NCBI GenBank assembly: GCA_945903265.1
Contig: CAMDNQ010000007.1
Span: 26,111-90,110 of the forward strand
Direction: 5' to 3'
Length of the DNA: 64,000 nucleotides
DNA from: Candidatus Sulfopaludibacter sp. SbA3
GTDB taxonomy: Bacteria > Acidobacteriota > Vicinamibacteria > Vicinamibacterales > UBA2999
The translations under genes were made by a program, and so were the position numbers. Positions 6,838-18,945 of the stretch are shown here, one piece after another. Each line of letters begins with the position of its first letter. Within the stretch, counting starts at the first letter, position 1. Below the pieces are notes generated by a model, which was given only the letters and a program-made list of their open reading frames with translations, was not told where the DNA came from and made no database searches.

Positions 6838-8025
6838 GTGATGAACCGGCGAGAGTTTCTCTACACCGCCGCCGCGGGAACGCTGGCGGCGCACGTTACG
6901 CCGGCTGCCGCCCAGGCTACCAACTACGATCTGATCATCCGCGGCGGCCGCGTGATCGACCCTTCGCTTCGCCTCGATGGGATCCGCGATGTCGCCATCA
7001 ACGGCGCACGAATCGCGGCCGTCGACGCACACATTGCCGCCGGCGCCACCGAGACCATCAACGCGGCCGGCAGGCTCGTCGTGCCAGGGCTCATCGACAT
7101 TCACACCCACGCCGCCCGCACCGTCGAGGGTCCGGCGCTCGTGCTCGCCGACGGCGTGACCGGATGGATCGATGCCGGTTCACAGGGCGCCGATGGGATC
7201 GCTGGTCCTGCCGTTATAGCCCGCGCGTCTCCGCAGCAGGGACGCGTGCTGATCAACGTCGGGCGGGGTGGCATTCTGCCCGATGGCGACACCGTGGACA
7301 TCGCGCGCGCGGACGTCGGCGCGCTGCGCGATGCGATTGCGAAGCACCGCGACGTCATCGTCGGCGTCAAGGCGAGGCTGTCACGGGAGAATACCGGCGA
7401 GAACGACGACGAGGTGCTCAGGCGCGCTCAGGAAGTCGCGACCGCCGCCAATCTTCCGGTGATGATTCACATGGGACAGTCGCGCTCGCCCCTCCCCCGC
7501 CTGCTCGATCGCCTCAAGCCCGGCGACATCGTCACGCACATGTTCGCGCCGCCGCCCAACAGCATCATTGACGAGAGCGGCCGCATCCTTCCGGAAGTGC
7601 TGGCCGCCAGACGCCGCGGCGTCTGGTTCGACGTCGGCAACGGGCAGAACGGCCACATCCGATGGGATGTCGTCCAGCCCATCATGCGGGCCGGCTTCTG
7701 GCCCGACACGTTCTCCACCGACTGGAACGTCAATAGCCCGAAGACCGGAGTCATCGACTTTCCCAACTGCATGTCGAAATTCTTCGGCTTCGGCATGAGC
7801 GTGTCAGACGCGATTTCATGCGCGACCGTCAACGCCGCGCGCACCTTCGCCGTGTTCCGCGACCGCGGCACCCTCAACGTGGGCGCGGTGGCCGACATCG
7901 CGCTGCTCGAATTGCGTGAGGGACACTTCGAATTCCTGGATAACTACAAGAACACGATCCAGGGCCGGCAGCGGCTGTTCCCGAGTGGAACTATCCTGGC
8001 TGGAAAGCGGGTCCCGCGAGCCTGA
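6838..8025 (+). CDS. Tat-signal amidohydrolase/deacetylase-family metallohydrolase
   Basis: MMNRREFLYTAAAG twin-arginine leader. PGLIDIHTHA metal-binding HxH motif. Lies 4 nt after the propeller gene. Confidence 0.72.
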   Translation: MMNRREFLYTAAAGTLAAHVTPAAAQATNYDLIIRGGRVIDPSLRLDGIRDVAINGARIAAVDAHIAAGATETINAAGRLVVPGLIDIHTHAARTVEGPALVLADGVTGWIDAGSQGADGIAGPAVIARASPQQGRVLINVGRGGILPDGDTVDIARADVGALRDAIAKHRDVIVGVKARLSRENTGENDDEVLRRAQEVATAANLPVMIHMGQSRSPLPRLLDRLKPGDIVTHMFAPPPNSIIDESGRILPEVLAARRRGVWFDVGNGQNGHIRWDVVQPIMRAGFWPDTFSTDWNVNSPKTGVIDFPNCMSKFFGFGMSVSDAISCATVNAARTFAVFRDRGTLNVGAVADIALLELREGHFEFLDNYKNTIQGRQRLFPSGTILAGKRVPRA

Positions 8026-8057
8026 TTGGGAGTTGGCGCCTTGGGAGTTGGGAGTTC
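8026..8057 (-). repeat. 32-nt C/A-rich dispersed repeat, copy 2 (inverted relative to copy 1)
   Basis: The reverse complement gaactcccaactcccaaggcgccaactcccaa differs from 4322-4353 at 2 positions. Begins 1 nt after the amidohydrolase TGA. Confidence 0.8.
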
Positions 8058-8119
8058 GAGTCAGATTCGGTTCGTTAACGGGCGGGGAAGTGCTCGCGGT
8101 CGCGAAGCGATTGTACGCT

Positions 8120-9598
8120 TCAGGAGCGCGGTGCCGGCTCGCTGGTCTCGCGGATTGGTATGCGAGGCTCGGCGCACGGAATCTCCGCCTCGGCCGTAAT
8201 AATGTGAGGCTTCGACGGTCCGATGTCGACGGCTATCGTGCGCCACTTCTGCTGCTGAAACCGCGCGACGCTGAGACCGCACCGGAGCATGTGCCCGGTG
8301 AGAATCGCCATCCAGATGTGACGCGCCTCGAGGCCGGTCGTCGCCTGAAAGAACGTGCACAGTCCGAGAGGTACGACGATCTGCGACACGATGGAAATAT
8401 AGAGCGGACTTCTGGTATCGCCGGTTCCCTGCAGCGCGCCGGTGTAACTCAATGCGACCGTGATGAAGAATCCCGAGACGCTCAGATATCGCAGCAGCTC
8501 TACACCGATATCGATGACGCGGGGATCGTCCATGCCGAAGATCGCCAGCAGGTACCGCGGAATCAGAAAGAATGTAAGCCCCACGACGGCGGCGACCGCC
8601 AGCCCGAACTGAGACGCCACCCGGACCCCTGCAATCGCGCGGTCGGGATTTCCCGCGCCCAGATTCTGGCCGGCGATTGTCGACGCGGCACCCATCAGGC
8701 CAACGGACGTCCATGTGATGAACGAAAACAGCTCCGTATAGCCGATGGTGTATGCCGCCTGCGCCGCGGCGCTTTCGTCGAGTGAACCGATGAACCGGAG
8801 CAGAAGGACGCCCCCCACATTCATCGCGATCCCCTGCACACCGGTCGGGAGGCCGAAGCGGAAGAGCGATCGGATGATCGTGAAGTCGGGTCGGAGATCC
8901 ATGTGGCGTTCGAAATGGATGACCGACTCCGGCCGCATCAGACGCCAGATGCCATACCCCGAGACGAGGGTGCTGCTCGCGATGGTTCCGTAGGCCGCCC
9001 CTACAGTGCCGAGTGCGGGAATCAGAACCAGGTTGAAGCCAATCGTCAGCACCGTCATGCCGACGCCAAGGCGAAGCGGGGTGTGAGGATCACCCGCGGC
9101 GCGAAAGGCGCCGCTCAGCATGAAGAACATCATCATGCCGATGAAGCCAACCATCATCGTCCGCAGGAATGGCAGCGCTTCGGCGTGCACGTCGGGCGCC
9201 GCGTTGACGAGATCGAGCAGCGTCGGTGCGGCCGCCCATCCCACGGCGCCAAGAATTACGGAGAGTCCGGCGGCCGTGAGAAATGCCTGATAGACGACGC
9301 GATTGACCTTGTCAGGCTGGTTCGCGCCGGCGAACCGCGCGACCAGTACACCCATGCCGGTGAAGACCGATACCGCGAAGACGATGACGACGATGATGAT
9401 CTGCCAGCTGACGCCGATTGCTGCGTTGGCGGTGTAGCCGACAAAGTGGCCGACCATCGCATGATCGATGATGCCCTGCAGACCCGCGATGACATTCTGG
9501 AGCATCGTTGGCCATGCGAGGCGCCAGACGGCTGGGCGGAGCGGGCCTTCGATGATCGAGCGGTCGAACTTCTTTCGTACCGGGACGGCGCCTGCCAT
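8120..9598 (-). CDS. MATE-family efflux transporter
   Basis: 492 aa and polytopic. MATE-like N-terminus (WRLAWPTMLQNVIAGLQGIIDHAMVGH). The start lies 3 nt after the topoisomerase B stop. Confidence 0.82.
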   Translation of the reverse strand: MAGAVPVRKKFDRSIIEGPLRPAVWRLAWPTMLQNVIAGLQGIIDHAMVGHFVGYTANAAIGVSWQIIIVVIVFAVSVFTGMGVLVARFAGANQPDKVNRVVYQAFLTAAGLSVILGAVGWAAAPTLLDLVNAAPDVHAEALPFLRTMMVGFIGMMMFFMLSGAFRAAGDPHTPLRLGVGMTVLTIGFNLVLIPALGTVGAAYGTIASSTLVSGYGIWRLMRPESVIHFERHMDLRPDFTIIRSLFRFGLPTGVQGIAMNVGGVLLLRFIGSLDESAAAQAAYTIGYTELFSFITWTSVGLMGAASTIAGQNLGAGNPDRAIAGVRVASQFGLAVAAVVGLTFFLIPRYLLAIFGMDDPRVIDIGVELLRYLSVSGFFITVALSYTGALQGTGDTRSPLYISIVSQIVVPLGLCTFFQATTGLEARHIWMAILTGHMLRCGLSVARFQQQKWRTIAVDIGPSKPHIITAEAEIPCAEPRIPIRETSEPAPRS

Positions 9599-9601
9599 GG
9601 G

Positions 9602-11506
9602 CTAAACGTCGAGCTCCTGCGCGTCCTCGGCGCGGTCCATGATGAACCTGAATCGCGCGGAGGCGTCCTTCCCCATCAGCTCGTTGATCACGCGGTCGGT
9701 CACGATCTGATCCGAGATCTCGACGCGGAGGAGCCGCCTGGTTTTGGGGTTGAGCGTCGTCTCCCAGAGCACTTTCGGCATCATCTCACCGAGACCCTTG
9801 AAGCGGGTGATGTCGGGATGCGAGCGCCCGTTGCCGTGCTGCTTGAGGATGCGGTCGCGATGCGGCTCGTCCAGCGCCCAGAACGTTTCTTTGCCGATAT
9901 CGATCCGGTAGAGAGGGGGCTGTGCGAGGAACACCCGCCCGTTCGCGATCAGCTGCGGTAGATGGCGATAGAGAAATGTAAGCAGCAGCGTGGCGATGTG
10001 ATGACCGTCGGAGTCCGCATCGGCAAGGATGACGACTTTGCCGTAGCGCAGGCGCCCGAGGTCGAAGTTCTTGCCCATCCCGCAGCCAAGCGCGGTGACG
10101 AGATCGGCGAGCTCCTTGTTCTCCAGCACCTTGGCGAGGGTCATGCCCTCCGTGTTCATCACTTTCCCGCGGAGCGGAAGGATGGCCTGCCGGCCGCGGT
10201 CGCGCCCCTGCTTGGCGGACCCTCCTGCGGAATCGCCTTCGACGACGAAGAGCTCGCTGTCCTCACGGCCCGCGCCGGTGCAGTCGCTCAACTTCCCCGG
10301 AAGATTGAGTCGCCCTGAGGTCGCCGTCTTGCGTGTGACCTCGGCCGAAGCGGCGCGGCTCGCCTCGCGAGCGCGCGCGGAAAGAATGATCCGCCCGACG
10401 ATCGCTTCGGCGACGCTGCGATTGTGATTGAGCCAGTGCTCCAGCGCCGGGCGGACCGCTGAATCGATGACGGATGTCAGCTCAGGATTGTTCAGCCGAT
10501 CCTTGGTCTGACCCTGAAACTGCGGTTCGGCAATAAAGATGCTGACGACGCCGGTGAGTCCTTCCCGGATGTCTTCGGCTGAGAGCGTGACGCCTTTCGG
10601 CGACAGGCTGTGCGTGTCGATGTAATTCCGCACGGCTTTGCCGAGACCCGCTCGAAGCCCGTTTTCGTGTGTCCCGCCCGAACCCGTGGGGATCCCGTTC
10701 ACGTAGCTGCGGATGTGTTCGTCGGTGGCTTCCGTCCACTGCAGGACCAGGTCAATCCGCGGTCCGCTCTCCCGCTCCTGCGTGAACGCGACATCGTGAA
10801 CCGGCTTCGCGCCCCGCTCGGCGACGATCTTCTTCAGGTAATCGAGAAGGCCTTCCTGATGCTGGAAAACTTCCCTGGTCTTAGCCGCTTCGTTCTCGAA
10901 GGTGACGCGTACACCCTTGTGGATGTAGCTGACGATCTCGAGCCGCTCGCGAATCACGGCGGGATCGAATTCGACCTTCGGAAAAATCGTGGGATCGGGA
11001 TGGAAGTAGACGGTGGTGCCGCTGCCGCGTGCGGGCCCCGCCTTCTTCAGCGGACCCGTCGGCTTGCCGCGGCGGAACGTCATCTCCCACTGCGAGCCGT
11101 CGCGCCTCACGGTCGCGTGCAGTTCGGTGGAGAGCGCATTCACGACGCTCGCGCCGACGCCGTGCAGGCCTCCGGCCGTCTTGTAGCTGCCGTGCTCGAA
11201 CTTCCCACCGGCATGGAGCACGGTGAAAATGACCTCGAGGGCGCTCTTCTTCGTTGCCGAATGCTTGTCTACGGGAATGCCGCGGCCGTCGTCTGCGATG
11301 GTGATTGAGCTGCCGTCGGTATGAAGGGTGACGACGATGTTCGAGGCAAACCCGTTCATCGCCTCGTCGACGGCGTTGTCCAGGATTTCCCAGACCAGAT
11401 GGTGGAGGCCGGCCGTGCCGACCCCACCGATATACATGCCGGGACGCTTGCGGACCGGCTCCAGTCCCTCGAGGACGGTGATGTCTTTGGCTGTGTAGTT
11501 ACTCAC
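9602..11506 (-). CDS. type IIA topoisomerase subunit B (GyrB/ParE family; ParE-like by sequence feel)
   Basis: VLEGLEPVRKRPGMYIGG, GLHHLVWEILDNAVDEA, LHAGGKF...GGLHGVGASVVNALS, Toprim EGDSAGGSAKQGRDR, PLRGKVMN. 634 aa. GTG start. Confidence 0.9.
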   Translation of the reverse strand: MSNYTAKDITVLEGLEPVRKRPGMYIGGVGTAGLHHLVWEILDNAVDEAMNGFASNIVVTLHTDGSSITIADDGRGIPVDKHSATKKSALEVIFTVLHAGGKFEHGSYKTAGGLHGVGASVVNALSTELHATVRRDGSQWEMTFRRGKPTGPLKKAGPARGSGTTVYFHPDPTIFPKVEFDPAVIRERLEIVSYIHKGVRVTFENEAAKTREVFQHQEGLLDYLKKIVAERGAKPVHDVAFTQERESGPRIDLVLQWTEATDEHIRSYVNGIPTGSGGTHENGLRAGLGKAVRNYIDTHSLSPKGVTLSAEDIREGLTGVVSIFIAEPQFQGQTKDRLNNPELTSVIDSAVRPALEHWLNHNRSVAEAIVGRIILSARAREASRAASAEVTRKTATSGRLNLPGKLSDCTGAGREDSELFVVEGDSAGGSAKQGRDRGRQAILPLRGKVMNTEGMTLAKVLENKELADLVTALGCGMGKNFDLGRLRYGKVVILADADSDGHHIATLLLTFLYRHLPQLIANGRVFLAQPPLYRIDIGKETFWALDEPHRDRILKQHGNGRSHPDITRFKGLGEMMPKVLWETTLNPKTRRLLRVEISDQIVTDRVINELMGKDASARFRFIMDRAEDAQELDV

Positions 11507-12980
11507 CCGTATCTGCGGCGACCGTTCGCGACTTCACGGTCTTTCTGGCCCGCGGCGTCGCCGGCTTCGCGACCTTCGCCCGGCTGCGCGGGGCTTTCGA
11601 CACAGCACTCGGAGCAGGACTCTTGCGGCGGCGGGTGCCCTTTGGCAACGGCCCATCTTCACCCAGGCCCTGGGCACTGGCTTCGATCACCGCGTCCACG
11701 ATGGGCCGGTCGGCCACGATTTCACCGGGCATCTCGCCCTCTACCGGCTCCGCCACGACATCGGCGACAGCCTCCGGAAGCGGCACGTTGCCCTGCGCGT
11801 TCGGGCGCGAGGCGAGCTTCTGACCCGGGAACAGGCGAATCGCACCCTGGCGATCGCGCTCGACGCGCAGCACGCCTTCCTTGCCGGCGGCGCGCATGAG
11901 GTCGTTGACCGACGCGAACCCGTAGTTGCGTTCGTCAAAACCGCTGATGGCGGTGCGCAGGAACTGCTTCGCCTGGCGCACGTACATCGGCCACCTGATT
12001 GGCGAGGCCGCGTCCGCGAACGCCGTCTGCACCGCGCGGATGCCGTCCTGCATTGTCATGGGCGAGACCGGCAGTGCTTCGTCGGCGTCGGGGTCGACGA
12101 CGCCATCCACGGGGGCCACGGCCGGTTGCGATGGTGGCGCCGCACGGACTACCGGCGCGACGGGCTCCGCTGACGCGGTCGCATGATCCGCATGGTCGCC
12201 ATCCGGCGATTCGACCAGAATGCTCCGGCCTACATGTCGCAACGTCACGGCTCCAGAGGCCGCGATCTTCTCCATGAAGTCGCGGAAGCTGCCGGCGCCG
12301 TATTCCCGTTCCGAGAATGTCGAGTCGAGCTGCAGCAGCGTGCTCTTGAGAAGACCGAGCTGCGGCGTCGCTTCGCGTTCGGACAGGACCTTCAGGGCAC
12401 GCCGCACGAGCGGGAGTGCTTCGGCCACCTGCGTGGAGCCGCCGCTGGAAGGCTGCTTCGCGCCACGTCCCGACGAGCGCCCGCTGCTGCGGGTCACCGC
12501 CGCGAGATTCTCGTACGCGATGAACTCGTGGCAGTTCTTCTGCATCGTCGCGCTGGTGAACTGCCGGCCGCCGACGACCAGCACTTTGCGGCCGTACTGC
12601 TTGAGTTTTTCGACCAGGGAGATGAAGTCACTGTCGCCGCCGACGATGACGAAGGTGTTGATGTGGCTGTGTGTGAAGGCGAGCTCGAGCGCGTCGAGCG
12701 CCATGGTGATGTCGGCGCCATTCTTGTCGCCGCCCGGCGTCATCGTGCGCTGGACCATCCGGATCGCATGCTGCGCGAGCACGCGGCTGTAATCGCCGGC
12801 GCGCTTCCAGTCGCTGTACGCAATCTTGGTCACAATCTCGCCGCGCTCTTTAATCGCTTCGAGCACGAGCCCGATATCGAACTGACCGCCGATCGTGTTC
12901 TTGACGCCGATCTCGACGTTGTCGAAATCAATGAAAACCGCAATGCGGCTGGTGCTGGGAATCTCTGTAGTGATGTTCAT
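11499..12980 (-). CDS. NYN (LabA-like) domain protein with two OST-HTH/LOTUS domains and a Lys/Arg-rich C-terminal tail
   Basis: The NYN core is RIAVFIDFDNV...ADITMALDALELA...FVIVGGDSDFISLVEKLKQYGRKVLVVG. Two LOTUS-like segments are present (...FSEREYGAGSFRDFMEKI... and ...FDERNYGFASVNDLMRAAG...). The tail is KGTRRRKSPAPSAVSKAPRSRAKVAKPATPRARKTVKSR. The last 8 nt overlap the subunit B start. Confidence 0.78.
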   Translation of the reverse strand: MNITTEIPSTSRIAVFIDFDNVEIGVKNTIGGQFDIGLVLEAIKERGEIVTKIAYSDWKRAGDYSRVLAQHAIRMVQRTMTPGGDKNGADITMALDALELAFTHSHINTFVIVGGDSDFISLVEKLKQYGRKVLVVGGRQFTSATMQKNCHEFIAYENLAAVTRSSGRSSGRGAKQPSSGGSTQVAEALPLVRRALKVLSEREATPQLGLLKSTLLQLDSTFSEREYGAGSFRDFMEKIAASGAVTLRHVGRSILVESPDGDHADHATASAEPVAPVVRAAPPSQPAVAPVDGVVDPDADEALPVSPMTMQDGIRAVQTAFADAASPIRWPMYVRQAKQFLRTAISGFDERNYGFASVNDLMRAAGKEGVLRVERDRQGAIRLFPGQKLASRPNAQGNVPLPEAVADVVAEPVEGEMPGEIVADRPIVDAVIEASAQGLGEDGPLPKGTRRRKSPAPSAVSKAPRSRAKVAKPATPRARKTVKSRTVAADTGE

Positions 12981-13080
12981 GAACTCTCTGGCGCCTGGCG
13001 GCGCCGCGTGAAATGCCTTGGAAGGGCCTGACTTATTGGCCTCCGACAGTATAGCAGTCGGGCTATCCCCCTGCCTGACA

Positions 13081-15486
13081 TTAATTTACAGCCGTTCCGT
13101 CGAGCGGCTGCGGGTTGGGGACTTCGGGCGGAATCACCCGCGTAAACTGCCCCCGCTGCAGGAGTTCGCGCCCCTTGCCGCCCCGCCCGGTCACCTCGTA
13201 TTTGGCCGTACTGATGGTCTGCTCGCTGCCGCGGCTCGTCTCGACCCGCATGAGGTCCCGGTCGCCGGTCGACGCCATGAATCCGAGGACCTTGTCGTCC
13301 TTTTCCGTGAGCTTGATCAGAATGACGCCCTTGCCGGGCCCTGACAGGTAGTTCACCTCGTCGGCGCGGCACAGCAGCGCACGGGCGCTTTGCGTCGCGG
13401 CGATGACGATCTCTTCGCCGGTGACCCGTTCCACGCCGGTGACTTCGACGCCCTGCGACGGGCGGGCGTAGCGGCGGCCGGCGCGCGTGCTCGGCTCGAG
13501 GAACGACTCGAAGCTGAATCGCAGGCTGTACCCGTCGCTCGTCACGGCCAGCGCGTGGACGGGCGGTGGATCGCCTTCTTTCTTCGCGGCGATCTTTCCG
13601 CTGACCCGGGGATCGAGGCTGAACGCCGCGATCACGCGCTCGCCGTCACGGAGCTTGAACAGCTTCTGCACCGGCTCTCCGTACCCGGTTGACGCAGGCA
13701 CGTCGATGATGCGCGCCGTGTAGGCCGCGCCGAAGTTGGTGAAGAGCACGATGCTCGCGCGCGTGCTCCCTGGCAGCACCGCCAGCACCGCATCCCCCTC
13801 GCGAAGGCGCGTCGTGGACAGATCGCGCACCTCCTTCTGGCGCTTGAGCCATCCGTCGCGCGACACGATGACGACGTTGTCTTCCTCGACGATGAAGTCA
13901 TCAGCCGTGAACGTGACTTCCTCGACCGTCTCGATGATCGAGCGGCGCGGGTCGCCCTTGCCGCCGTAGGTCTTCTCGATGGCTTCGATTTCCTCCCGGA
14001 CGATCGTCCAGCGTCCGTCTTCGTCCTTCAGCAGCCCCCCGATCTGGCGCGCGCGCTTGCGCTTCTCCGCCAGCTCGTTCTGAATGACGAGGATTTCGAG
14101 CCGGGCGAGCCGATACAGTTTCAATTCGAGGATGGCGTCGGTCTGGTCGGCATCGAGCGCGAAGCGCTTCATGATCTTGTCGGCGGCGTCGGCTTTCCCG
14201 TCCGACTTCCGAATCAGCTTCAGGATCTCGTCGAGCGCGTCGAAAATCTTCTCGAAGCCCTCGAGAATGTGGATGCGTTTCTTCAGCGCTTCCAGCTCGT
14301 GCTCGAGCCGATTGGTCACGACCTCGAGGCGGAAGTGCAGGAAGTGCCAGAGGATCGACTTGAGATCGAGGCGCTCCGGGCGGCCCACTTCCGCGTTCTC
14401 CGTCGGAATGAGACAGGTCAGATTGACGATGAAGTTGGACTGGAGCGGCGTGTTCTTGAAGAGATACGCCATCACCATCTTCACGTCGGCGTCTTTTTTC
14501 AGCTCCAGCTCGATGCGCACGTCGTCCGTGGAGATGTCACGGACGTCGAGCAACTGGGGCAGCTTGCGCGACAGGACCACGTCGGCAATCCGTTCGACGA
14601 GCGTGGACTTGTTCGTGAAGTAGGGCACGCTCGTGATGAAGATCTTCTGGCCGCCGCGCGAGGACGGCCCTTCCTCCCACGTGGCTCGCAGGCGCACCGT
14701 GCCCGATCCGGTCCTGTAAATCTCCTTCAACTCGTCGGGGGAATTGAGAATCTGCCCGCCCGTCGGGAAGTCGGGACCTTTGACCCAGCGGCACAACTGA
14801 ACGCTGCTGAGATCCGGGTTGTCGAGCAACTTGAGCAGCGCCGTGCAGATTTCGCCCAGGTTGTGCGGCGGGATGCTGGTCGCCATACCGACCGCGATCC
14901 CGGTTGTCCCGTTGATCAACAGATTCGGGATGCGCGCCGGCAACACGACAGGCTCGGTCTTCGTGCCGTCGTAGTTCGGCTTGAAGGCGACGGTCGCCTG
15001 ATCGATTTCCGTCAGCATCTCGTCCGAGATGCGGGCCAGGCGGCATTCCGTGTAGCGCATCGCCGCGGCGCTGTCGCCGTCGAGGGACCCGAAGTTCCCC
15101 GACCCGTCCACCAGCGGATAGCGCAGCGAGAATGACTGCGCCATGCGGACGAGCGTTTCGTAGAGCGCCGCGTCGCCGTGTGGGTGGAAGCTGCCCATGA
15201 CGTCGCCAACGACCTTCGCGCACTTTCGATGCTTGGTGTCAGCGGTCAGGTTCTGCTGCCACATCGCGTACAGGATGCGGCGCTGGACGGGCTTCAATCC
15301 GTCCCGCACATCGGGAAGCGCGCGCGATGTGATGACGGACAACGCGTAGTTCAGATAACGCGTCTGCGCGGCTTCGTGCAGCGGCACGGCCTCGAGAAAT
15401 CCCCCCGGGGGCGGCGGGACGCCTCCGGATGATTCGCTCGCCGGCATGTCGAAGAGAGAAGGAGAAGACTTGCGCGCCTTGGCCAT
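13081..15486 (-). CDS. type IIA topoisomerase subunit A (GyrA/ParC family)
   Basis: [54 protein letters not shown], and active-site [11 protein letters not shown]. 801 aa. Confidence 0.9.
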
Positions 15487-15489
15487 GTC

Positions 15490-16935
15490 TTAGCGGGGGG
15501 ATGCGGTGAACATCTTACCGGGGTTCATCAGGTTATCGGGGTCCAGCGCACGCTTGATCGCGCGCATCACGTCGAGCGCGTCGCCATGCTCGGCGTGCAG
15601 ATAGTCCATCTTGCCGATGCCGACGCCATGCTCGCCGCTGCAGGTCCCGCCCATCGCCTGGGCGCGCTTGACGAGGCGCGCATTAATCGCGGTGGCCTCG
15701 GCGAGCTCGGCCGGGTTGTCGGGATCGAGCACGAACACGAAGTGGAAGTTGCCGTCGCCGACGTGACCCATCAGCGGCGCGATCAGCGAAGACGCCTGCA
15801 CGTCGCGGCGTGTGTCGAGAATGCACTCGGCCAGGCGCGAGATCGGCACGCACACATCGGTCGTCCATGGCTTCGCGCCAGGACGAAGCGCGATCGACGC
15901 GTAGAAGGCGTTGTGGCGCGCCTGCCAGAGTCGCGTGCGGTCCTCCGGCGTCGATGCCCACTCGAATCCGGACCCGCCCTGCTCCGCGGCAATCTCCTGG
16001 GCGGTGCCCGCGTGCTCGGTAACCGCGGCGGCGCTGGTCCCGTGAAACTCGAAGAACAGGGTCGGCTTCGGTGGATACGACAGCTTCGAGTACTTGTTGA
16101 CGGCTTCGATCTGCAGCTCGTCGAGCAGTTCGAGACGGGCGACCGGAATCCCCAGCTGAATCGTCGTCATCGCCGTGCGCACGGCGCCTTCCATCGTCTC
16201 GAACTGGCAGACGGCCGCCGACACCGCCTCCGGCAGCCCGAAGAGACGCAGCGTCAGCTCGGTGATGACACCAAGGGTTCCCTCGGAGCCGACGAACAAC
16301 CGCGTCAGGTCGTAGCCGGACGATGACTTCCGCGCACGGCCGCCGGTGCGGATGATCCGTCCGTCCGCCAGGACGACCGTCATTCCGAGGACCACGTCGC
16401 GCATGGTGCCGTAGCGAACGGCCGTCGTTCCTGACGCGCGCGTGGCCGCCATGCCGCCAATCGTCGCGTCAGCGCCCGGATCTACCCAGAAGGCGACCCC
16501 GGTGTTGGCCAGCGCCTTGTTCAACTGCCGGTGCGTGACGCCGGCCTCAACGTCGCAATCAAGGTCGTCCGCGCTGACACGCAGCACGCGGTTCATGCGC
16601 GAACAATCGAGCGAGACGCCGCCGTGAAGGGCGTTCACGTGTCCTTCGAGCGACGACCCGACGCCGAACGGCACGATGGGCGCGCCATGCCTGGTCGCAA
16701 TGCGGACGATGGCCGCCACCTCCTCGGTCGTCGCCGGAAACACGACGACGTCCGGAGCGCCGGCGGCGTGCCACGACTCGCCGTGGCTGTGGTGCTCGAT
16801 CTGCGTGGGATTCGTACTGCACCGCTCGCCGATCGCGGTGGATAAATCTGCAATGAGGGCGTCGCGCGCGCTTCCGGACAGGACCGATGTCATCAGCGTT
16901 GTATTATCAATCTTCCGCGTCCATCCGGCGCTCAT
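15490..16935 (-). CDS. FAD-linked oxidase (GlcD / D-lactate dehydrogenase family)
   Basis: PCMH-type FAD-binding region VVVFPATTEEVAAIVRIATRHGAPIVPFGVGSSLEGH. C-terminal GGTCSGEHGVGIGK. The stop lies 3 nt before the subunit A start. Confidence 0.82.
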   Translation of the reverse strand: MSAGWTRKIDNTTLMTSVLSGSARDALIADLSTAIGERCSTNPTQIEHHSHGESWHAAGAPDVVVFPATTEEVAAIVRIATRHGAPIVPFGVGSSLEGHVNALHGGVSLDCSRMNRVLRVSADDLDCDVEAGVTHRQLNKALANTGVAFWVDPGADATIGGMAATRASGTTAVRYGTMRDVVLGMTVVLADGRIIRTGGRARKSSSGYDLTRLFVGSEGTLGVITELTLRLFGLPEAVSAAVCQFETMEGAVRTAMTTIQLGIPVARLELLDELQIEAVNKYSKLSYPPKPTLFFEFHGTSAAAVTEHAGTAQEIAAEQGGSGFEWASTPEDRTRLWQARHNAFYASIALRPGAKPWTTDVCVPISRLAECILDTRRDVQASSLIAPLMGHVGDGNFHFVFVLDPDNPAELAEATAINARLVKRAQAMGGTCSGEHGVGIGKMDYLHAEHGDALDVMRAIKRALDPDNLMNPGKMFTASPR

Positions 16936-16964
16936 CCAGGCGCATCTGCAAGAGGTTCAGGCTC

Positions 16965-17738
16965 GTGAAGTCCCCGTTTACCAGCAAGACACTCTCCTTT
17001 CTCCGTTCACTGAAGCGCAACAACGATCGCGAGTGGTTCCGGTCGCGCAAGCCCCAATACGAGCAGCATGTGCGCGGTCCGATGGTGGAGCTCCTGGCGC
17101 AGCTCGCCCAGGATCTGCCCGCCTTCGCTCCCGATCACGTGTCGGACCCGCGTGTCTCGCTGTACCGCATCTATCGCGACACGCGTTTCAGCGGCGATAA
17201 GCGTCCCCTCAAAACGCACGTTGCGGCGCACTTTCCGTCGCGCAAGTTTGCCCGCGGCGAAGGTGCCGGCCTCTATCTCGAGATCGCGCCCACCTGGGTC
17301 TGGATCGGCGGCGGCCTCTACATGCCCTCGTCCACCGACCTCCGGGCCATCCGTGCACGGATTGGTACGCGCCACCGGGCCCTCGACCGCATCGTCACCA
17401 CACCGGCGTTCCGCCGCGCCGTGGGACGCCTCGAGGGCGACCAGCTTTCGCGCATCCCGCGTGGCTACGCGAAGGATCATCCGGGCGAGCACTACCTTCG
17501 TTTCAAGCAGTTTCTCGCCGGGCGCGAGTTCGAGGCGGAGCTGGCGACGCGCGGCCGGTTTTACTCGGACGTGCTGTCGATCTTCCGCGCCGTCGCGCCG
17601 CTCGTGCAATTTCTTAATAGCGCGCTCCTTGCCGAACCGCGGGGGACTGCACCGGTTACGAGCGCCCTCGACCCGTCACCGCTGCCAGGTCTGCGGCAAA
17701 TCGCGGAGCGTCGGCCGGATCCAGCGCCGATGTGGTGA
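16965..17738 (+). CDS. DUF2461 (TIGR02453) family protein
   Basis: LSFLRSLKRNNDREWFRSRKPQYEQHV is typical of the family. I chose GTG 16965 as the start, because the ATG at 16887 would overlap the divergent oxidase gene. Confidence 0.65.
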   Translation: MKSPFTSKTLSFLRSLKRNNDREWFRSRKPQYEQHVRGPMVELLAQLAQDLPAFAPDHVSDPRVSLYRIYRDTRFSGDKRPLKTHVAAHFPSRKFARGEGAGLYLEIAPTWVWIGGGLYMPSSTDLRAIRARIGTRHRALDRIVTTPAFRRAVGRLEGDQLSRIPRGYAKDHPGEHYLRFKQFLAGREFEAELATRGRFYSDVLSIFRAVAPLVQFLNSALLAEPRGTAPVTSALDPSPLPGLRQIAERRPDPAPMW

Positions 17739-18945
17739 CCCGAATTGCCGGCTGGCTGCGCGTCCGGAATGGTTCGCCGGCCGCGACGGCCCACCCTCGA
17801 ACCATCAGCGCGGCGACGACTGCCGTCTCCTCGCGAACTGGAAGCCACACATTGAATCCGGATTTCGCCGAGGCGGCGATGCCCCGTTCTGCGAGGGCCG
17901 ACAGCACGGCGGCGCGTCGCAGAGCGTAGGTCTCCGCGGCGCGGGCAAGCCGCCGCCCGCCCGATGGATCCGACCAGCAGGCGAGCACCAGCCGCTGCAC
18001 GATGCGACTGACCCATCGTGCGCCGAGCGCCTGCCGGTGGCGCACGCGCGCAATCGTGAGCGGGTCGCCGGACACGAGAGCGAGACGCAGATCCGGACCG
18101 AGGAACTTCGACGTGGAGCGAACGATTGCCCATCGCCCTGCGTGGGTTCCGCGAACGGGAGCGATGGGCACGCCGGCAATCGGCGCTGCGTAGTCGTTCT
18201 CGATCACGACGACATCGGGATGCGGTTTGAGAATGCGGCGAAGGTCGGCCGCCCTGGCGTCGCTGATCGCCGCCCCTGTCGGATTCTGGGCGCGCGACGT
18301 CACGACGACGGCGCGGCACCCGGCGGCGACGGCCCTGGCCAGCGACTCCGGCTCGGGACCGTCGGCGTCGACGGTGACCGGCATCGGGACAAAGCCGGAG
18401 GTCGCGACGAGCTCGCGAATGTCCGGGAGCGTGGGGTCTTCAATTGCCACCGCGTCGCCGGTTTTCACGTGCTCCCAGAGAATCCGCTCGATCGCGTCGA
18501 GCGCACCCGTCGCTATGGTGAGGTCGGCCGCCGGGATGCCGTCGGCGTCGAGTTCCATCGCGGCAAATGCCATCAACGACGGGTCGAGCGGCGCACGGTC
18601 GTCCGGGTCGAACCGGGAAATCAGGTGAGTCGGAAGGTCGAGCGGGAGAAGACTCGGGTCGGGGTTCCCGCTGGCCAGGTCCACGACGTCGTCGGGTATC
18701 GCGACGGGGAGACGCGCGGCCGGGAGAGGAACCGGGGAAACGACCCTGGTGCCTCGACGGCCGCCTCCTGACGTTAACCCACGCGCCTGCAGTAGTTTAT
18801 AGGCAGCGGCAACAGTCGCAGGGCTGACATTCAGCTTCGCCGCGACGGTCCGGACAGGAGGGAGCCGGGTGTCGGGATTGGCCGGAACCAGCTGCTGCTC
18901 AATCGACAGGGCGATAGCAGCAGCGGTCCGGCCGGTGATCTTCAT
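17656..18945 (-). CDS. MocR/PdxR-type regulator (GntR wHTH fused to a fold-type I aminotransferase domain)
   Basis: N-terminal LPPVRTVAAKLNVSPATVAAAYKLLQARGL. C-terminal aminotransferase-like domain with STSKFLGPDLRLA, the putative PLP lysine. Confidence 0.82.
   Translation of the reverse strand: MKITGRTAAAIALSIEQQLVPANPDTRLPPVRTVAAKLNVSPATVAAAYKLLQARGLTSGGGRRGTRVVSPVPLPAARLPVAIPDDVVDLASGNPDPSLLPLDLPTHLISRFDPDDRAPLDPSLMAFAAMELDADGIPAADLTIATGALDAIERILWEHVKTGDAVAIEDPTLPDIRELVATSGFVPMPVTVDADGPEPESLARAVAAGCRAVVVTSRAQNPTGAAISDARAADLRRILKPHPDVVVIENDYAAPIAGVPIAPVRGTHAGRWAIVRSTSKFLGPDLRLALVSGDPLTIARVRHRQALGARWVSRIVQRLVLACWSDPSGGRRLARAAETYALRRAAVLSALAERGIAASAKSGFNVWLPVREETAVVAALMVRGWAVAAGEPFRTRSQPAIRVTTSALDPADAPRFAADLAAVTGRGRS

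Follow-up and report, generated by a model that had tools for sequence, protein, structure and literature searches.

The window studied here is the whole 64,000-nucleotide stretch of DNA from Candidatus Sulfopaludibacter sp. SbA3. Between the genes for the two subunits (A and B) of a type IIA topoisomerase, it carries a gene for a protein with a NYN domain, two LOTUS (OST-HTH) modules, and a basic C-terminal tail. An earlier note on this DNA had proposed that this NYN/LOTUS protein is a dedicated accessory or regulatory partner of the topoisomerase, synthesized in stoichiometric amounts with the B subunit. Neither proposal was supported when we compared related loci. We consider it likely that the middle gene encodes an ordinary, widespread LabA/DUF88-type NYN nuclease with a duplicated OST-HTH domain and that its position is an inherited gene order of a single soil-bacterial lineage, where it has repeatedly been lost. 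The NYN gene is linked to the topoisomerase genes no more strongly than are two unrelated genes of the same cluster, one for a multidrug and toxic compound extrusion (MATE) pump and one for a flavin adenine dinucleotide (FAD)-linked oxidase.

Gene order was examined by searching the window's five proteins by tblastn against the best 80 genomic loci of the NYN gene, with counts taken from tblastn coordinates rather than from an open reading frame (ORF)-based gene map. The loci came from 80 different assemblies and are therefore consistent with a single copy per genome, as for a conserved core gene. Nearly all are labeled Vicinamibacterales or Acidobacteria. Five (L031, L043, L055, L074, and L077) carry other labels (Acidimicrobiia, Bifidobacteriaceae, Binatia, or Solibacteraceae). 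The NYN genes of these five are Vicinamibacterales-like, as are the neighboring genes in L031 and L043, and the contigs are probably mis-binned or mislabeled pieces of metagenome-assembled genomes.

Wherever topoisomerase genes lay within 8 kilobases (kb) of the NYN gene, they shared its strand, and their order never varied. Among the 59 informative loci, defined as those in which the NYN gene is flanked by 6 kb or more in each direction, both subunit genes were found in 22, only B in 17, only A in 2, and neither in 18; A and/or B had gone from the NYN vicinity in 37 of the 59. A map of the neighbor families resolved at least six synteny types. That of the window reads MutS2-like, DUF2461, FAD oxidase, A, NYN, B, MATE, and aldehyde dehydrogenase, and in other types the A gene is gone or an additional gene is lodged between NYN and B. 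In nine loci (L005, L014-L018, L022, L023, and L027), a gene between NYN and B lies on the opposite strand, which rules out obligatory cotranscription of NYN and B there. Its product has about 136 amino acids, a hydrophobic N-terminal segment, and no Pfam match. A sister clade of 20-odd loci has no topoisomerase gene: NYN is preceded by genes for a cyclophilin and a BamB-like protein and is convergent with dinB (DNA polymerase IV, PF00817). One further synteny type is also without a topoisomerase gene. The arrangement convergent with dinB was seen in L032-L034, L037, L040, L044, L045, L049, L051, L053, L054, L060, L061, L063, L071, and L078, around positions 8000 to 11000 of each.

The junction between NYN and B was variable. 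Across the 44 loci with a B gene, the end of the NYN gene and the start of B overlapped in 6 (by 8 nucleotides in L001, L002, L003, L013, and L026 and by 4 in L008), were 2 to 58 nucleotides apart in 9, and were separated by 110 nucleotides to 5.3 kb in 29; no overlap was present in the other 38 loci. In the window, the GTG start of B does fall within the last 8 nucleotides of the NYN gene, as the earlier note had read it, and the two genes share the sequence GTGAGTAA (11499-11506, minus strand). The further claim that this overlap implies translational coupling stands in part. The arrangement is compatible with coupling in this genome, but it is rare among the related loci. Stoichiometric synthesis of the NYN/LOTUS protein and B found no support, given this rarity and the opposite-strand gene that separates the two in nine loci. 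On a neighbor-joining tree of the NYN proteins, the A-NYN-B order was present in the deepest ingroup branches as well as in the window's clade and is therefore probably ancestral. On the tree, this order has broken up at no fewer than six distinct points.

We then set these linkages beside those of the outer neighbors. B followed NYN in 33 of 62 loci (53%), and A preceded NYN in 25 of 64 (39%). For the controls, the MATE gene followed B in 21 of 31 informative loci (68%), and the FAD oxidase gene preceded A in 11 of 24 (46%). All loci were picked via the NYN gene, so this comparison is not fully symmetrical.

Outside the clade, the association disappeared. No type II topoisomerase gene was found within 8 kb of any of eight more distant NYN/LOTUS homologs, which share 34 to 49% identity with the window's protein (P0147, 49%; P0274, 46%; P0180, 43%; P0175, 42%; P0173, 39%; P0212, 39%; P0225, 36%; and P0258, 34%) and stand in eight mutually different gene contexts. 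A closer homolog, P0112 (62% identity), has the window's own synteny block. The active site is kept in all aligned distant homologs and an Arg/Lys-rich C terminus in most. Because homologs without a topoisomerase neighbor have these features, the active site and the basic tail are not adaptations to the topoisomerase context. Conservation of the gene neighborhood, which the earlier note had named as a test of its idea, was thus not observed: within the clade, the linkage is kept no better than that of unrelated neighbors, and in the eight outside lineages it is absent.

The family is large. Homologs of the NYN/LOTUS protein fall into more than 8000 clusters at 90% identity, with many showing 60 to 70% identity over the full length, and into 6709 clusters at 50% identity (E ≤ 1e-3). 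In a set of 48 orthologs whose overall identity is 66 to 95%, the linkers vary freely, while there is hardly any variation in the NYN domain or in the two LOTUS cores. The near-invariance of these cores is an unusually strong constraint for a protein without a known role.

The four-part architecture described earlier was borne out by Pfam, hhalign, AlphaFold, and Foldseek. The gene (11499-12980, minus strand) encodes 493 amino acids, and all parts are given here in that strand. The LabA/DUF88-type NYN nuclease domain occupies residues 12 to 156 (12513-12947) and matches Pfam PF01936 with 111.3 bits against a cutoff of 24.2 (E = 7e-32), covering profile positions 1 to 144 of 145. The only match of the protein to a sequence in the PDB was VPA0982 (2qip; E = 5e-8), in which D18, N21, D90, D96, D116, and D118 have aligned counterparts, so that every acidic active-site position is matched. 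Across 11 homologs, down to 28% identity, D18, D20, N21, D90, D116, and D118 are invariant. As to a PIN-like alpha/beta fold, Foldseek matched the NYN domain of MARF1 (5yaa and 6fdl) with a probability of 0.97 to 0.98 and an E value of 0.02, on a low-confidence AlphaFold model.

The second LOTUS module (residues 310 to 390; 11811-12053) was recognized in the whole-protein Pfam search as OST-HTH (PF12872) at residues 337 to 381, with 32.6 bits against a cutoff of 23.8. The profile searches thus supported both the NYN and the OST-HTH assignments, contrary to the outcome that the earlier note had named as refuting its idea. The first module (residues 181 to 257; 12210-12440) is LOTUS-like by hhalign and AlphaFold; searched alone against PF12872, it scored 17.3 bits (E = 0.004), under the Pfam cutoff. 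A profile-profile alignment placed the two modules in register (E = 1e-4), and AlphaFold gave both the same H-H-H-H-E-E topology, with a predicted local distance difference test (pLDDT) of 76 to 92 in the first and 92 to 96 in the second. The low predicted template modeling score (pTM) of the full model made whole-model Foldseek E values weak; therefore, domain-level matches alone were used. At that level, the best LOTUS matches were 3rco (the LOTUS domain of TDRD7; template modeling score, 0.70; root mean square deviation, 2.5 Å) and 2kpm (the OST-HTH domain of NE0665), in an output that does not specify which module was aligned.

The long Ala/Pro/acidic linkers and the C-terminal tail (residues 447 to 493; 11502-11642) are predicted to be disordered, with pLDDT below 50 in the tail. 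The earlier description of this tail as histone H1-like holds for its basic character, with 15 Arg/Lys among the 40 residues from 447 to 486. It does not extend to homology: no Pfam family matched the tail, and the resemblance is therefore compositional only. Two other assignments of the protein did not hold. TIGR00288, the label that the Joint Genome Institute (JGI) gives the orthologs, matched partially with 31.1 bits, below the equivalog cutoff of 178.45. A reading as an antiphage defense NYN protein was rejected, as PADLOC returned only a partial match to PDLC01154 (24.7 bits; residues 88 to 159).

The architecture itself is not new. The combination of NYN (termed LK-nuclease) with OST-HTH was interpreted in 2010 as an RNA degradation enzyme that probably acts on its own, and the bacterial DUF88/LabA-type NYN plus OST-HTH family was reported to have no conserved gene neighborhoods (Anantharaman, Zhang & Aravind, PMC2848206), which also speaks against a dedicated topoisomerase partner. 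Bacterial LOTUS domains, including the mLOTUS of Treponema pallidum TP0894, bind G-quadruplex (G4) RNA (PMC7498356). The middle protein resembles DUF88/LabA-type NYN plus OST-HTH proteins such as TP0894 and NE0665 of Nitrosomonas europaea (2kpm) in its acidic residues, and its distant homologs resemble the family as a whole in having no conserved gene neighborhood. Unlike TP0894 and NE0665, its subfamily has long Ala/Pro/acidic linkers, an Arg/Lys-rich tail, and an unusually invariant NYN domain, and in one clade its gene has a parC-like gene on one side and a parE-like gene on the other. Eukaryotic MARF1/limkain-b1, the protein behind the two Foldseek matches to NYN domains, likewise joins a NYN endoribonuclease to LOTUS domains. 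It differs in that it carries RNA recognition motifs, has as many as eight LOTUS domains, and takes part in mRNA decay together with the decapping machinery, and its NYN domain is only about 17 to 21% identical to ours in the Foldseek alignments. VPA0982 of Vibrio parahaemolyticus and cyanobacterial LabA have a homologous NYN domain and are NYN-only proteins, without LOTUS modules or a basic tail.

A full-text search of the literature that combined NYN, OST-HTH, and topoisomerase returned one unrelated paper and nothing relevant; the earlier note likewise knew of no described link between such proteins and gyrase or topoisomerase IV. Proteins known to modulate type IIA topoisomerases in bacteria include YacG, GyrI/SbmC, the pentapeptide repeat proteins MfpA/Qnr, and MukB (MukB-ParC). 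None of these is known to be a NYN/LOTUS protein or to be related to the middle protein in sequence or fold. All that they have in common with the proposed partnership is the notion that a small protein acts on the enzyme.

The layout of the locus was confirmed by the ORFs and by an independent gene call. Five minus-strand ORFs form a chain: the FAD-linked oxidase (15490-16935; 481 amino acids; Pfam FAD_binding_4 and FAD-oxidase_C), the ParC-like A subunit (13081-15486; 801 amino acids; Pfam DNA_topoisoIV, E = 9e-145), the NYN/LOTUS protein, the B subunit (9602-11506; 634 amino acids; Pfam HATPase_c, DNA_gyraseB, Toprim, and DNA_gyraseB_C), and the MATE efflux pump (8120-9598; 492 amino acids; Pfam MatE, E = 2.5e-48). 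The FAD oxidase and A genes are 3 nucleotides apart, as are the B and MATE genes; 100 nucleotides separate A from NYN, and NYN and B overlap by 8. A public contig with an identical A subunit, annotated independently, agrees in all five genes, their lengths, and their spacing. The 3′ end of the NYN gene, ACG GGT GAG TAA, holds the B start, GTG AGT AAC TAC. This GTG is the most upstream start possible for B and gives the N terminus M-S-N-Y-T-A-K-D-I-T-V-L-E-G-L-E, which is conserved in homologs. Since the FAD oxidase and MATE genes are packed equally tightly and are plainly unrelated, neither tight packing nor the stop/start overlap is evidence of shared function.

The G+C content at third codon positions (GC3) is 0.78 to 0.86 in the minus-strand genes. 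Long plus-strand ORFs overlap them at 8903-9961, 10610-11308, 11321-11899, 12183-13031, and 14269-15135; with their low GC3 (0.58 to 0.65, with high G+C content at first positions), these are antisense artifacts of DNA with 65% G+C. No tRNA gene was found in the window, and a permissive Rfam search of region 7000-18000 returned a single chance-level match (sR14, E = 0.54) and nothing credible. The MATE gene starts 3 nucleotides past B. Pumps of the MATE/NorM type are known to export fluoroquinolones, drugs that act on type IIA topoisomerases; this connection is probably a coincidence.

We treat the A and B subunits as a putative topoisomerase IV-type paralog. The A subunit passes NCBIfam NF004044 (780 bits; cutoff, 654), fails the gyrA equivalogs (TIGR01063, 686 against 877; NF004043, 696 against 902), and has no GyrA box, Q(R/K)RGG(R/K)G, where the C-terminal domain begins; only GRGGKG was seen, at residue 769. 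The B subunit passes just the subfamily model NF004189 (785 bits; cutoff, 740) and lies under the cutoff for every gyrB and parE equivalog. Orthologs of A are named DNA topoisomerase IV subunit A in NCBI sources. A PDB sequence search with A scored gyrase and topoisomerase IV chains alike and does not discriminate between them. No canonical gyrA/gyrB pair lies elsewhere within the 64-kb window. Bacteria generally carry gyrase, so such a pair is expected elsewhere in the genome.

The gap between A and NYN (12981-13080) holds candidate expression signals, both on the minus strand. An extended −10-like box, TGcTATACT, lies at 13048-13056, 73 nucleotides ahead of the NYN start. Hexamers of this kind (TATACT, TATAAT, or CATAAT) occurred within 130 nucleotides upstream of NYN in 26 of 77 loci, compared with 3.2 in shuffled sequences, and independently of the upstream gene; because of this enrichment, the NYN gene probably has its own promoter. 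A consensus promoter scan found no full sigma-70 site with both −35 and −10 elements, and a terminator scan found fewer terminator-like sites than expected from shuffles. A GC hairpin (GGCGCC-gcca-GGCGCC, 12990-13005) ends 10 nucleotides ahead of the start codon and could be an element of the 5′ untranslated region (5′ UTR) or plain GC-rich sequence. Hairpins of differing sequence occupy similar positions in 26 of 77 loci; shuffled sequences gave 9.5 ± 2.9, and a control region gave 15 of 77. This enrichment is weak, and we do not claim a 5′ UTR hairpin element upstream of NYN, as the excess over the control region is too modest.

Could the topoisomerase context nevertheless be functional? It seems to us very unlikely that the NYN/LOTUS protein serves a topoisomerase IV-like enzyme as a dedicated accessory or regulator, held in a fixed ratio with B by translational coupling and binding or modulating A2B2. 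The co-orientation of the three genes, the 8-nucleotide overlap in the window and five close relatives, and the apparently ancestral A-NYN-B order in 22 of the 59 informative loci would fit such a role, and winged-helix modules with a basic tail could bind DNA. However, most loci without the overlap have intervening genes, some of them on the opposite strand, and the linkage is missing from 18 of the 59 clade loci and from all 8 sampled outgroup lineages. Where it does persist, it does so no better than that of the MATE or FAD oxidase genes. The sequence features of the protein are not specific to the topoisomerase-linked versions, published tests showed no preference of LOTUS domains for DNA G4 (PMC7498356), and the literature search found no published link. 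For the same locus one can picture a true functional module of parC, NYN/LOTUS, and parE in Vicinamibacteria, in which an RNA-binding nuclease with a nucleoid-binding tail, coexpressed with topoisomerase IV, would clear G-rich transcripts or R-loops at decatenation sites or modulate the enzyme; this we hold to be highly improbable. A looser association, in which an ancestral parC-NYN-parE set was coregulated for chromosome maintenance and the nuclease might clear R-loops or G-rich transcripts that obstruct segregation or decatenation, with no complex being formed, is unlikely as well. It would account for the persistence of the trio across varied outer flanks and for the recurrence of DNA metabolism genes nearby (dinB beside NYN in 18 loci and a RecN-like SMC_N gene beside one outgroup homolog, P0212), and the basic tail does suggest that the protein associates with nucleic acid or with the nucleoid. 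The remaining neighbors, though, are heterogeneous (cyclophilin, BamB-like, TamB/Omp85, ammonium transporter, glycosyltransferases, and sigma-54 activators), and the NYN/LOTUS proteins studied so far act in RNA decay, not in DNA transactions.

A different question is whether the protein cleaves RNA at all. It may mainly be a noncatalytic regulator that binds RNA or other nucleic acid, as in the role assigned to cyanobacterial LabA, with NYN as a binding module. A nuclease role is only predicted for this subfamily, ample binding capacity comes from the basic tail and the two LOTUS modules, and the entire NYN surface is extremely conserved, beyond the active site, which suggests a conserved macromolecular partner. 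The invariance of all acidic residues for metal-dependent catalysis down to 28% identity argues the other way, as does the activity of the homologous MARF1 NYN domains as RNases, and we judge this explanation quite unlikely.

Several observations weigh against our preferred reading of an ordinary nuclease in an inherited gene order. The A-NYN-B core survives in deep lineages with differing outer flanks (L067/L069, L036/L038, and the window's clade), and this survival could mean that the trio is under selection rather than passively trapped. In many lineages, represented by the 17 loci with B only, NYN still adjoins B after A has left. To these we add the asymmetry of the control comparison noted above. 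For the protein, RNase activity and RNA binding are predictions from family membership, and AlphaFold confidence is low over residues 1 to 180, which include the NYN domain, with a pTM of 0.29 for the full protein. The poor NYN model is explained by an alignment that is shallow and nearly invariant.

With the middle protein read as an ordinary LabA/DUF88-type nuclease, its family suggests that it would act alone as a metal-dependent endoribonuclease, with LOTUS modules that may recruit G-rich or structured RNA and an Arg/Lys tail that may add nonspecific affinity for nucleic acids. The order ParC-like, NYN, ParE-like would be ancestral in the Vicinamibacteria-type clade and would have been lost repeatedly; it persists in part because NYN is caught between two genes with a tendency to remain neighbors. 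In this genome, NYN is probably transcribed together with B from a promoter in the 100-nucleotide gap, and because the B start lies inside the NYN stop region, translation of B is likely coupled to that of NYN. Within the window's subclade, B would then be cotranscribed with NYN and probably coupled to it in translation. Such coupling is a local expression link and not a sign that the proteins work together.

If the earlier idea of a dedicated partner were to hold, it would mean a new class of topoisomerase partner and a first cellular role for bacterial NYN-LOTUS proteins; likewise, a true functional module would be the first link of a NYN/LOTUS protein to a type II topoisomerase. What the clade does offer is an unusually conserved NYN-LOTUS protein, apparently present in a single copy per genome, that is suited to biochemical study.

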